A DNA stretch of 64,000 bases. It comes from Candidatus Atabeyarchaeum deiterrae (GTDB lineage Archaea > Asgardarchaeota > Atabeyarchaeia > Atabeyarchaeales > Atabeyarchaeaceae). Below, piece after piece: positions 8,877 through 18,236 of the stretch. The position numbers and the translations under genes were made by a program. Each line of letters starts with the position of its first letter. The first letter of the stretch is position 1. The stretch lies in assembly GCA_037310415.1 (NCBI GenBank), contig CP147780.1, positions 448,001 to 512,000 on the forward strand. The letters run 5' to 3'. The notes beneath the pieces are model-generated. The model saw nothing but the letters and a program-made list of their open reading frames with translations. It was not told where the DNA came from and searched no databases.

Positions 8877-11379
8877 GTGATTACCATTTCTAAACCAGAA
8901 TTTGGAGAGAAGCATTGGTCCGTTAAGACGGAAGAAGAAATACTGCAGAAGTGGAGAAGCAAGAAGAGCTACTCCTTCGACTTGAAGAATGGGAAGCAGC
9001 CGTTTTCCATTGACACACCTCCACCCTACGCAAGCGGTCGGTGGCACCTCGGTGGGGCAGTACACTACTCACAGATTGACATGATAGCTAGATGCAAGAG
9101 AATGGAAGGCTATGAGGTTCTCTTCCCGATGGGCATCGACCGAAACGGATAAGTCCCCCCCAAGTCGGAGAGACTCCGGATTACCGATCGAGGTTCAGGC
9201 GGAAAAAGAGTTCGGGGTTAAGATGAATGAAACACCCAGAGGGGAGTTCATAGAATTCTGCCACAACTTGCTGGACAAATACGAGGATGACATTTTATCT
9301 ATTTCAAGAAGACTAGGGCTGAGCTGCAATTCCCTGGAGCAGAAAGAAGTGTACAGAACTGACAGCCCCGAATACCGCAGGATAACTCAAGCAACATTCA
9401 TTAAACTTTGGAACATGGGCTTAGTATACGAAGATCGGAGGCCCAACAACTACTGCACGGACTGCGGAACCACAATAGCGGATGCAGAAATAGAGTATAG
9501 CGAAATAGAAACATCATTGAACTACATCAGATTTAGGATCGAGGGATCTAATGAGGAGATCATTATTGCCACTACCAGACCGGAGCTTCTCTGCGCCTGC
9601 GCTTGCGTGTTAGTTCACCCTTCTGACGAGAGATATAAGAAATTTCACAAGAAGACCGCACTAATCCCGATTTATGAAAGGAATGTGCCAATAATAGCTA
9701 ATCCTGCTGCCCAAATGGAGTTTGGAACGGGGGCGGCAATGATCTGTTCGTATGGTGACTACACTGATGTCAGACTCTACAGAGAACTTCAGCTGGCGCC
9801 AGTGGACGCCATAGATCATAACGGGAGAATGACGGAAGCTGCAGGAGAACTTAAAGGACTCAAAATACCTGAAGCAAGAAAAGAGATGGTGGCAAAGCTA
9901 AGACACCAAAGCGCATTGATCAAACAGGAAAGAATAATGCACAGGACACCCGTCTGTTGGCGAACAAGAACCCCCATCGAATTCATTGCAATGTCGGAGC
10001 TATATTTGAAACAATTGGATTTCTTGGGAGAATTAAAGAAGACAATCGACAAAATGGAATTCTATCCCCCACCAAGCAAACACATCCTTTCAAGCTGGAT
10101 TAACTCCGTAAGCGTGGACTGGCCGATAAGCAGGAGAAGATACTACGGTACAGAAATTCCATTGTGGTACTGCCTAAAGTGTGGTAAGCCCGTCGTTCCA
10201 GAACCCGGAGAATACTACCAACCATGGAAGGATGCCCCACCGTTCGTTAAATGCTCCCACTGCGGTGCGAAAGAAGGCTTCAAGGGCGAGGAAAGAACCT
10301 TTGACACATGGTTTGACTCAGGGATAAGTGAACTTCAAATCCTCGGTTATCTAAGAGACGAAGAATCTTTCAAGAAGCTATTCCCTTGTTCAATAAGACC
10401 TCAAGGGAAAGACATAGTCCGGACGTGGTGTTACTATTCAATCCTCAGAACCTACCAGCTCCTGAAGGAACGAGCATTCAAGAAAGTCTGGATAAGCGGG
10501 CATGTAATGGACGACAAAGGGGAAAGAATGTCGAAATCGCGCGGAAACGTAACGTGGCCTACCCCACTAATGGACAAGTACGGCGCAGACGCACTCAGGC
10601 TTTGGGGATGCCTGGAAGCGGGTTTGGGAAGCGATATTAGGTTCTCTGAACCCCGACTCGCAAGCGCTCACAGCTTCTTAACAAAGCTATGGAACATATC
10701 GAAATTCATATCGGCTTTTGCAGATCCTGCAGACAAGGACATAGAACTGCTGGCTTCAGATAGGTGGATACTGTCCGAACTTAATCAGATGGTCAATGAC
10801 GCAATTGAAGGATACCAGAAGTTGGACTTCAATATCCCAGCTACCAAGATACGGACATTCACATGGGAGACTTTTGCCTCTCACTACATTGAAATGGCTA
10901 AGGCGAGGGCATACAATAAGGGGAAGATCTTCCCCGAAGGGCAACAGAGAGGCGCGTGGTACACGCTTCACATGTGCCTTAAGACGATAATAATGGTACT
11001 AGCACCCATATGCCCCTTCATAACTGAAGAAATCTACGGGGGATTGTACTCACAGGAGGAAAGCATACACCACCAGTCTTTTCCAAAACCAAAAAAAGAA
11101 TGGGAAACACCACTCAGAACACTTACTCCTCTCATCATGGAGGCAAACAGCGCAATTTGGAAAACGAAGAAGGACAACAAGCTGCCACTGAATGCCCCAG
11201 TAAAGACGCTTTATCTGCCACAGGAACTCGAACAACTGGGGGAAGATCTCAAAAGAATGCATAATGTGGAAAACATAAGCTTTAAACCACCTGCAAAGAC
11301 ACTAACAGAGAAAGAGAAATACATAGTTGTAAAGATCGATCAAAGCAAGAGACAGAGTCAGATATTCATCAGCATCTGA
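8877..11379 (+). CDS. valS: Valyl-tRNA synthetase, interrupted by a 31-nt insert (join 8877-9150 and 9182-11379)
   Basis: ORF 8877-9152 has DTPPPY and HLGG (HIGH-like) and ends GIDRNG-stop. The second frame resumes LPIE and carries DTWFDS and RMSKS. Deleting 31 nt restores DRNGLPIE. Confidence 0.93.
9151..9181 (+). other. Candidate BHB intron in valS mRNA
   Basis: Central helix ACGG(9145-48)/CCGG(9176-79), bulges AT^A and AT^T, inner stem AGTC/GACT, outer TCGACCG/CGATCGA. Standard BHB cuts remove exactly 31 nt and restore the frame. Confidence 0.8.
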
Positions 11380-11472: not shown

Positions 11473-11658
11473 GGGCCCGTAGCTCAAAGTGGAGGAGAAT
11501 GAAAGCAAGCTTCCACTGGCAAAGCTTGGCTGGAGCGTTCGGCTGAGCATCTGGGTAACTTTGCCAGATGGGCAACTAACCGAATAGGTTGAGGAAAAAC
11601 CTGAAAAGAACCTTACCCTCGGGGCAGGTCGCGAGTTCGAATCTCGCCGGGCCCACCA
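11473..11658 (+). tRNA. tRNA-Ile(GAT) with 3 introns (11487-11523 at 14/15, 11547-11576 at 35/36 inside the anticodon, 11585-11625 at 43/44)
   Basis: Spliced product is a 78-nt GGGCCCG...CGGGCCC-ACCA cloverleaf. Each intron is a hairpin with a relaxed BHB. Confidence 0.9.
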
Positions 11659-11687
11659 CTTCTCTATCCAAAAATGTTTGTTGAGTT

Positions 11688-11796
11688 GGGCCGGTAGTTC
11701 AGACTGGAAACCACCTTGCAGTGACTAAGGGTGAACATAAGATACGCCGGCTTCGCAAGCCGGAGGTCGTGGGTTCAAATCCCACCCGGTCCACCA
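11688..11796 (+). tRNA. tRNA-Ala(CGC) with a ~31-nt D-loop intron (~11710-11740)
   Basis: G3:U70 pair; CCGGC-TT-CGC-AA-GCCGG. Comparison with the intronless Ala(TGC) defines the insert. Confidence 0.9.
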
Positions 11797-14534: not shown

Positions 14535-14552
14535 TTACGAGTAAGGTCTGAT

Positions 14553-17660
<3,108 letters not shown>

Positions 17661-17829
17661 AGGCCTGAAAGCCCTCGGTCTGGGTGAATTTAGATCTCCC
17701 ATTTATTGTTCGGCGGGTGGAATTCTGTGCGTGGTGATCTCCTCATTTCTCTTGGACTAGTCAATCCCATGTTTGCCCCCTTGTTGATGGAAATTCTTAT
17801 TTGACATTCCTCGTAAATGTATTCTTGGA

Positions 17830-18236
17830 GTTAGGACGTGGGAGCGCGGCTGCCGGTGCCTTTCTTTCTCTTTGAGGAAGCTAGGTGCTGAGGAAGGTCT
17901 CCCCTCCACCAGACTTCGGTGCAGCGAAAGCTGCGAGGCGAGAGCCTCGCTCCAGGATCAGAAACGACACGTCCACACGTGAAATGACTATGATGCGGTT
18001 GAGGCGATGCTTACAGTGAGCGTCTCCGAGCAGGAGCCAGGGTAACCTAGCTCAATAACCCGCTGAGGATCCTTGTGGGAGCGGTGAAACGGCCTGCCAC
18101 CGAGGAGAAAGCCCAAATAGGCTGTGGATGATGCGTCTGGCTGAACCAGCGGGTAGGGTGAGTAGCTGGATGCCGCAAAGGGTGTTTCGGCGACGAAACA
18201 TCTGGAACAAAAGGGGGCCTACTACCCACACCTGAC
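17830..18236 (+). ncRNA. rnpB: RNase P RNA
   Basis: GAGGAAGGTCTCCCC pairs with AACAAAAGGGGGCCTACT (P4); CAGAAAC and GGTGAAACGGC conserved regions; terminal P1 stem. Confidence 0.9.

Follow-up and report, generated by a model that had tools for sequence, protein, structure and literature searches.

The window analysed here, a stretch of 64,000 nucleotides (nt) from Candidatus Atabeyarchaeum deiterrae (contig CP147780.1, positions 448,001 to 512,000), carries a valS gene, encoding valyl-tRNA synthetase (ValRS), whose reading frame is interrupted by 31 nt that resemble a tRNA-type, bulge-helix-bulge (BHB) intron. The frame opens at a GTG at 8877 on the plus strand and runs to ...L-F-P-M-G-I-D-R-N-G, where it meets a TAA at 9150-9152. 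In the +1 frame, the continuation L-P-I-E-V-Q-A-E-K is found 31 nt further on, from 9181, and remains open as far as 11379. The upstream open reading frame (ORF; 8877-9152) encodes 91 amino acids (aa) and includes the HIGH-type class I signature HLGG, and the downstream ORF (9181-11379) encodes 732 aa, including the class I signature RMSKS. Against the NCBIfam profile NF009687 (valine--tRNA ligase), exon 1 matches positions 4-88 and exon 2 positions 89-797. Because these pieces abut at 88/89, the 31 nt are a clean insertion with no codon missing or duplicated; the insert divides a Leu codon in phase 1. By itself, exon 2 reaches 792.9 bits against a cut-off of 738, and exon 1 extends this match by its own profile positions, which together with the class I motifs places the gene in the ValRS family. 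The predicted spliced ValRS has 823 aa, and those of relatives 810-850 aa. The original prediction, made before any database search, had described a conserved G.D.NG/LP.E motif split by 31 nt, with an immediate TAA and a frameshift, and two intact gene halves. Translation and the contiguous profile matches, with both signatures present, bear out this description.

No second valS was identified in the genome (G000; a single contig of 2,756,679 bp, 97% complete), in which the other profile matches are IleRS, LeuRS and MetRS. A second intact copy, together with an absence of spliced transcripts, had been named beforehand as a finding that would count against an intron. A genome-wide search likewise recovered no further copy of the intron sequence, and a repeated mobile element was rejected on the basis of this single copy. 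A spliceosomal or group I/II intron was also discarded, given that the insert, at 31 nt, is too short and that the frame is not restored by any GT-AG boundaries.

Distribution of the insert and register of the predicted cuts

Read literally, the insert introduces a premature stop and a frameshift, and the NCBI annotation of the sister genome SRVP18_Atabeyarchaeia-1 (G001) gives only a truncated, 718-aa 'valine--tRNA ligase' that lacks exon 1, with the intron unannotated. Both observations would suit a pseudogene or an assembly error, in which the insert inactivates valS or is absent from real DNA. However, the insert is present in independent contigs. A contig of depth 16 (X1), possibly from the source sample, crosses it without indels, and a 658-nt contig from an independent study (X6) crosses it with two single-nucleotide differences and no indel. 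All three species of the GTDB class carry a 31-nt insert at exactly the same valS codon. A search for exon-1-like proteins returned 16 clusters, ending at ...DRNG or a few codons into the insert, from which 13 metagenome contigs were taken (JGI, ENA, NCBI and Logan assemblies). Each of the 13 has an insert of 29-31 nt at the same place and eRF1 upstream, as in the window. The three species genomes and the 13 contigs, all independent assemblies of the LC30/Atabeyarchaeia lineage (LC30 is the placeholder name for Atabeyarchaeia; PMC11291895), make up the set of 16 alleles used below. Every allele in it carries an insert of 29-31 nt at the one codon, at exon-1 identities down to 67%, and the occurrence of lengths of 29, 30 and 31 nt rules out a single fixed +1 frameshift.

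Among the three genomes compared, nonsynonymous divergence (dN) is 0.13-0.18 and synonymous divergence (pS) 0.61-0.78, which is near saturation, in both exons. Low dN at near-saturated synonymous sites indicates strong purifying selection on both halves of valS. As 16 alleles keep the insert under such selection, and as the genome holds no other gene for the indispensable ValRS, we regard a pseudogene or an assembly error as a practically negligible explanation.

Elsewhere the gene is uninterrupted and has NGLP. This is the case in 17 Asgard genomes of other families, in 77 metagenome loci with identities of 67% or less, and in a Freyarchaeia-like complete genome (G037), whose valS was considered as a further interrupted case and rejected when an apparent internal TAG proved to be the true stop codon. 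Predicted ValRS proteins that are at least 71% identical to exon 2 all have 712-737 aa and are exon-2-only gene calls, and full-length ValRS proteins appear only at 63% identity or less to exon 2. Among predicted proteins with >70% identity to exon 2, we found neither an intron-less close relative nor a full-length close ValRS. The original prediction had asked for the insert to be confirmed in DNA reads and for valS to be compared among related genomes, and on both counts it held: X1 and X6 carry the insert, 15 further alleles share it, and other Asgard families have an uninterrupted gene. A single gain of the valS intron in the Atabeyarchaeia stem, followed by its retention, is probable.

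The repeat CGGAU stands at both ends of the insert in this genome, so that its sequence alone cannot fix the junction and other alleles are needed. When both cuts were moved together over offsets from -5 to +5 in the 16 alleles, only offset +1, with cuts after 9150 and after 9181, gave DRNGLPIEVQ in every allele. Registers 0 to -4 give L in seven alleles, I in five, M in three and F in one; register -5 gives the same mixture and also changes the Asn to Thr, and registers +2 and beyond lead to stops or to Q/H. In the +1 register, exon 1 supplies the opening U or C of the Leu codon, and exon 2 its UN. In the sole allele with UC at the start of exon 2, exon 1 ends in C instead of U, and the codon therefore reads CUC (Leu) and not UUC (Phe). 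When each strand is cut after its second bulge base, as in a BHB, the functional NGLP results in 16/16 alleles, and the predicted spliced junction is AAC-GGA-TTA-CCG. Cuts after 9150 and after 9181 had been proposed on structural grounds alone as restoring GGA-TTA-CCG, and the 15 other alleles now single out this register.

The most serious rival explanation is translational bypass, in which peptidyl-tRNA-Gly would hop from GGA 9147-9149 to GGA 9178-9180 and decoding would resume at 9181. Matched GGA codons do flank a 28-nt gap, and in this genome a stop codon (UAA) follows the take-off codon, a hairpin lies within the gap and the same protein is predicted as by splicing. The alleles, however, separate the two. 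A hop would place L (7 alleles), I (5), M (3) or F (1) after the landing codon in an otherwise invariant motif, whereas splicing gives L in 16/16. Furthermore, 5/16 alleles have the sense codon CAA in place of the 'stop' after take-off, and in allele L131 GGG stands at the 'landing' site. The matched CGGA repeats are explained by the symmetry of the BHB. Across the 16 alleles, the hallmarks of programmed bypass of the T4 gene 60 type are not consistently present.

Predicted RNA structure and splicing machinery

The predicted helices and cut regions are listed in Table 1. In the structure alignment of the 16 alleles (A2; column 1 corresponds to window position 9126), 99.5% of the cells of the outer helix are paired, the central helix keeps three Watson-Crick pairs in all 16 alleles, with one G.U, and the inner helix shows compensatory double changes in three to four pairs. 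The 3' cut region forms, with G9179, a 6-nt loop (9179-9184) opposite 3 nt (9143-9145); the base before the 3' cut varies freely (A, U or C) and the base after it is always U. The proposed structure accounts for standard pairs in 96.3% of cells, versus 19-51% when partners are slid by 1-3 columns, and RNAalifold, given the alignment alone, returns the same helices. The 11 helix codons (-6..-1 and +2..+6) have a synonymous codon entropy of 0.29 bits, compared with 1.13 bits for neighbouring degenerate codons outside the helices (Mann-Whitney p = 6e-6), while synonymous sites elsewhere are saturated. The pairing, the compensatory changes and the low synonymous entropy indicate covariation and an RNA-level constraint on the exon parts of the motif. 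A ribosome hop would leave unexplained these frozen, mutually pairing synonymous sites, which reach up to six codons to each side, and we consider such a hop very improbable.

The same data bear on a split enzyme, in which a 91-aa N-terminal and a 732-aa C-terminal piece would be translated separately and assembled non-covalently. Gene callers do predict two ORFs at the locus, and split aminoacyl-tRNA synthetases exist in some prokaryotes. However, the second piece has no conserved start (called starts differ by up to ~70 nt between alleles), the break falls inside a conserved Rossmann-fold motif, and the conserved Leu would be lost in 9/16 alleles. Two separate pieces also leave the covarying hairpin and the exon-exon pairing unexplained, and this explanation is hardly credible.

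Splicing of the tRNA type would require an endonuclease and a ligase, and genes for both are present. Two EndA paralogs, located at 215.5 kb and 625.6 kb of C1, and one RtcB were identified, and both paralogs have an N-terminal as well as a C-terminal endonuclease domain. The 238-aa EndA is closest to crenarchaeal (alpha-beta)2 catalytic subunits (3p1z_B, 3ajv_B, 2cv8 and 2zyz_B; E down to 2e-46), and the 198-aa EndA is closer to 1a79 and 5x89. From the presence of two paralogs we infer a two-subunit, broad-specificity EndA architecture. Heterotetrameric EndA is the type known to cut relaxed motifs, including the cbf5 pre-mRNA (PMC2738675, PMC5829648).

A tRNA-Ile(GAU) gene, 2.4 kb downstream of the valS insert, offers a parallel within the window. 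Its third intron (11585-11625) has a central helix ACCG/CGGG closed by A.G, and cutting after the second bulge base gives the standard arrangement CCGAA-AGGUC-GCGAG; ARAGORN calls tRNA-Ile(GAU) once introns 2 and 3 are removed. As this intron must be removed for the tRNA to function, the cell's endonuclease presumably already handles an A.G-closed geometry. The A.G mismatch that the original prediction had likened to this tRNA-Ile intron is real in valS (A9145.G9179).

The tRNA-Ile gene itself (11473-11669) spans ~196 nt, with an encoded CCA and three insertions: one lies in the D region, one of 30 nt in the anticodon loop, and the third intron, of 41 nt, at the variable-loop junction. Both ARAGORN and Rfam overlook the gene as long as its introns are left in place. 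A second interrupted tRNA lies directly downstream (11688-11796), for which ARAGORN, run in intron mode, gives Phe(GAA) and an odd intron, and Rfam a borderline match only (11729-11788). Over the whole genome, ARAGORN in intron mode reports only 24 tRNA genes, many with implausible introns. Introns occur in 92-95% of the tRNA genes of Atabeyarchaeia, in a report that does not mention protein genes (PMC11291895), and the few ARAGORN calls fit this near-universal interruption. Further downstream in the window, the 23S rRNA match (14549-17663) is 3115 nt long against a model of 2987 positions, and the RNase P RNA match (17834-18233) is 400 nt against 288 positions; both may contain insertions.

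Based on these comparisons, we consider it highly likely that the 31 nt are a genuine tRNA-type (relaxed BHB) intron in a single valS gene, which would be removed by EndA cleavage and RtcB ligation. In the transcript, the codons flanking the insert would pair as an outer exon helix, and the central helix ACGG/CCGG together with the intronic hairpin would complete a relaxed BHB. The predicted two-subunit, broad-specificity EndA would cut after U9150 and after U9181, and RtcB would then join the exons to give GGA-UUA-CCG (Gly-Leu-Pro) and the 823-aa ValRS. As a prediction from comparative sequence data, endonuclease-plus-ligase splicing at 9150/9151 and 9181/9182 is strongly supported.

Several points weigh against this interpretation. 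Cleavage and ligation of the valS mRNA are predicted, and neither a spliced junction nor a circle or a peptide came to light. The motif is non-canonical: the 5' bulge, which separates the central from the inner helix, is of the canonical form, and the 4-nt central helix consists of three Watson-Crick pairs and an A.G, with the 3' cut in the 6-nt/3-nt internal loop and not in a clean 3-nt bulge. It is a relaxed BHB and not a strict hBHBh', and in the reported naming of Marck and Grosjean (2003) would be of the BHL or HBh' kind. The fold of the single sequence is no more stable than those of shuffles (z = +1.06), and the structure is accordingly backed by the comparative data and not by the single sequence. 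Some distant, Nitrosopumilus-like ValRS have Ile at the Leu position (NGIP), so that Leu is not absolutely required at the junction. Finally, measurements of which substrates Asgard EndA can cut are lacking (preprint 10.64898/2026.10.13.758758). A metatranscriptomic run (X16) has no coverage of the stretch and is uninformative on expression, and a protein with the spliced sequence was sought among predicted proteins and not found, the close ValRS all being exon-2-only calls. Metatranscriptomes from the source site exist (BioProject PRJNA1050611; SRVP wetland soil, 60-100 cm; PMC11291895), and the question of splicing is thus directly testable.

Other split protein genes and the probable spread of introns

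The insert is kept in 16/16 alleles and the gene is the sole valS, so ValRS is very probably made only after mRNA splicing. The original prediction had proposed that ValRS synthesis depends on tRNA-splicing capacity and may be regulated by it. The dependence follows logically; the regulation is unsupported. At least three other housekeeping genes, cbf5, glyA and gatE, are split in the same way, which fits a general spread of such introns in an intron-rich lineage better than a control specific to valS.

valS is one of several split genes in the genome (Table 1). The two pieces of glyA match PF00464 at positions 5-55 and 51-399 and lie about 26 nt apart; those of cbf5 match TIGR00425 at 7-71 and 70-320, and those of gatE match TIGR00134 at 2-86 and 84-621. 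A structure-plus-ORF scan identified canonical motifs at gatE and at a radical-SAM gene, in which removal of the insert restores the cluster motif CNLTCPWC. A genome-wide census of BHB-split ORFs under strict criteria returned 375 real loci versus ~364 frame-shifted decoys, and is too noisy to give a total; it recovered valS, gatE and the radical-SAM gene, and missed cbf5 and glyA. Such introns have probably spread lineage-wide into tRNA, rRNA and several protein genes. We lean, by a small degree, towards the wider view that Atabeyarchaeia, and perhaps other intron-rich lineages of Asgard archaea, express many of their housekeeping protein genes through routine and obligatory cut-and-ligate splicing by the tRNA machinery.

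Table 1. Positions of the valS exons, the predicted intron and its structural elements in the window, and of other split protein genes in the genome (C1 coordinates)
Feature	Coordinates	Strand	Details
valS exon 1	8877..9150	+	GTG start, 91 codons plus T9150 (first base of the split Leu codon); profile 4-88
Relaxed BHB intron (predicted)	9151..9181	+	31 nt here, 29-31 nt in related alleles
valS exon 2	9182..11379	+	Leu codon bases 2-3, then 731 codons plus stop; profile 89-797
Outer (exon-exon) helix, 5' strand	9130..9142	+	9130-9134 pairs with 9193-9197; 9136-9142 pairs with 9185-9191
Outer helix, 3' strand	9185..9197	+	Alignment pairing and RNAalifold
Central helix, 5' strand ACGG	9145..9148	+	Pairs with 9176-9179 (CCGG); outermost pair A9145.G9179
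5' three-base bulge A-U/A	9149..9151	+	Predicted cut after 9150; A-Y-A in 16/16 alleles
Inner (intronic) helix, 5' strand	9152..9156	+	Pairs with 9171-9175
3' strands of inner helix (9171-9175) and central helix (9176-9179)	9171..9179	+	Alignment pairing and RNAalifold
3' cut region A-U/U plus unpaired A-C	9180..9184	+	Predicted cut after 9181
cbf5	C1 395487-396472	+	Two profile-contiguous pieces, roughly 25-40 nt apart
glyA (the genome has two SHMT paralogs)	C1 652558-653765	+	Two profile-contiguous pieces, roughly 25-40 nt apart
gatE	C1 2220583-2222516	-	Two profile-contiguous pieces, roughly 25-40 nt apart
Radical-SAM gene, 53-nt insert	C1 about 919060	-	Canonical motif: 4-bp central helix, 7-bp inner helix

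An intron in the sole gene for an essential aminoacyl-tRNA synthetase across an Asgard class would make protein synthesis dependent on the tRNA-splicing enzymes, and would mean that tRNA-type introns can settle in coding sequence well beyond cbf5. Split genes such as valS can be misread as pseudogenes, which could affect estimates of completeness and metabolic predictions for Asgard genomes. mRNA splicing by protein enzymes in close relatives of eukaryotes would also bear on intron-tolerant expression before the spliceosome. If splicing of this kind is indeed routine for mRNAs, Atabeyarchaeia would be the first lineage of prokaryotes in which protein enzymes remove introns from a sizeable set of protein genes, and intron retention could gate the supply of ValRS and other core enzymes.

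Comparison with known systems

In the literature searched, the only archaeal mRNAs described as spliced by tRNA endonuclease are those of cbf5 and HVO_1309 (PMC10485636). Splicing of cbf5 mRNA has been shown in some Crenarchaeota, and introns in other archaeal protein genes had only been predicted (PMC2738675). The full-text literature searched, which leaves most subscription journals outside its coverage, describes neither an intron in valS nor, for Asgard archaea, BHB introns in protein genes, in line with the original prediction, which knew of no described valS intron. The valS intron is a new host gene and a new lineage for a known kind of intron.

Among the closest known parallels is the cbf5 intron of Crenarchaeota (Aeropyrum, Sulfolobales and Desulfurococcales; PMC2738675, PMC10485636), which, like that of valS, is short and lies inside a conserved motif of a housekeeping gene. 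In both cases the intron is lineage-specific, its relaxed BHB-like motif is formed partly of exon sequence, and gene callers break up the coding sequence. The hosts of the cbf5 intron have a two-subunit EndA, to which the architecture predicted for the valS host can be likened. Unlike crenarchaeal cbf5, valS is an aminoacyl-tRNA synthetase gene of the Asgard class Atabeyarchaeia; and cbf5 splicing has been shown experimentally, whereas that of valS is predicted. In Haloferax volcanii, the HVO_1309 mRNA is cut at a BHB by the splicing endonuclease and the main product is spliced RNA (PMC7714728, PMC10485636). In contrast to HVO_1309, the valS intron interrupts the reading frame of an essential gene. 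The HVO_1309 element reportedly lies in the 5' part or untranslated region of a non-essential gene, and its euryarchaeal host is said to have a homodimeric enzyme.

The non-canonical tRNA introns of Atabeyarchaeia and Freyarchaeia (PMC11291895; preprint 10.64898/2026.10.13.758758) share with valS the organisms, presumably the enzymes, and the relaxed geometry. The two papers describe introns in tRNA genes only, and neither names valS or introns in protein genes; the preprint makes no mention of mRNAs.

More distant parallels come from eukaryotes and phages. XBP1/HAC1 splicing (IRE1 with RtcB or Trl1) resembles the process proposed for valS in that protein enzymes alone cut and ligate an mRNA at paired stem-loops, the reading frame is changed, and the ligase is of the tRNA-splicing kind. 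It differs in that the endonuclease is IRE1 and not EndA/TSEN, and in that it acts as a regulated stress switch. The bypass in phage T4 gene 60 resembles valS in its matched GGA codons, the stop after take-off (present in most valS alleles) and the hairpin in the gap. Unlike in gene 60, the comparative data for valS point to cutting of the RNA one base downstream of the GGA codons and not to a hop.

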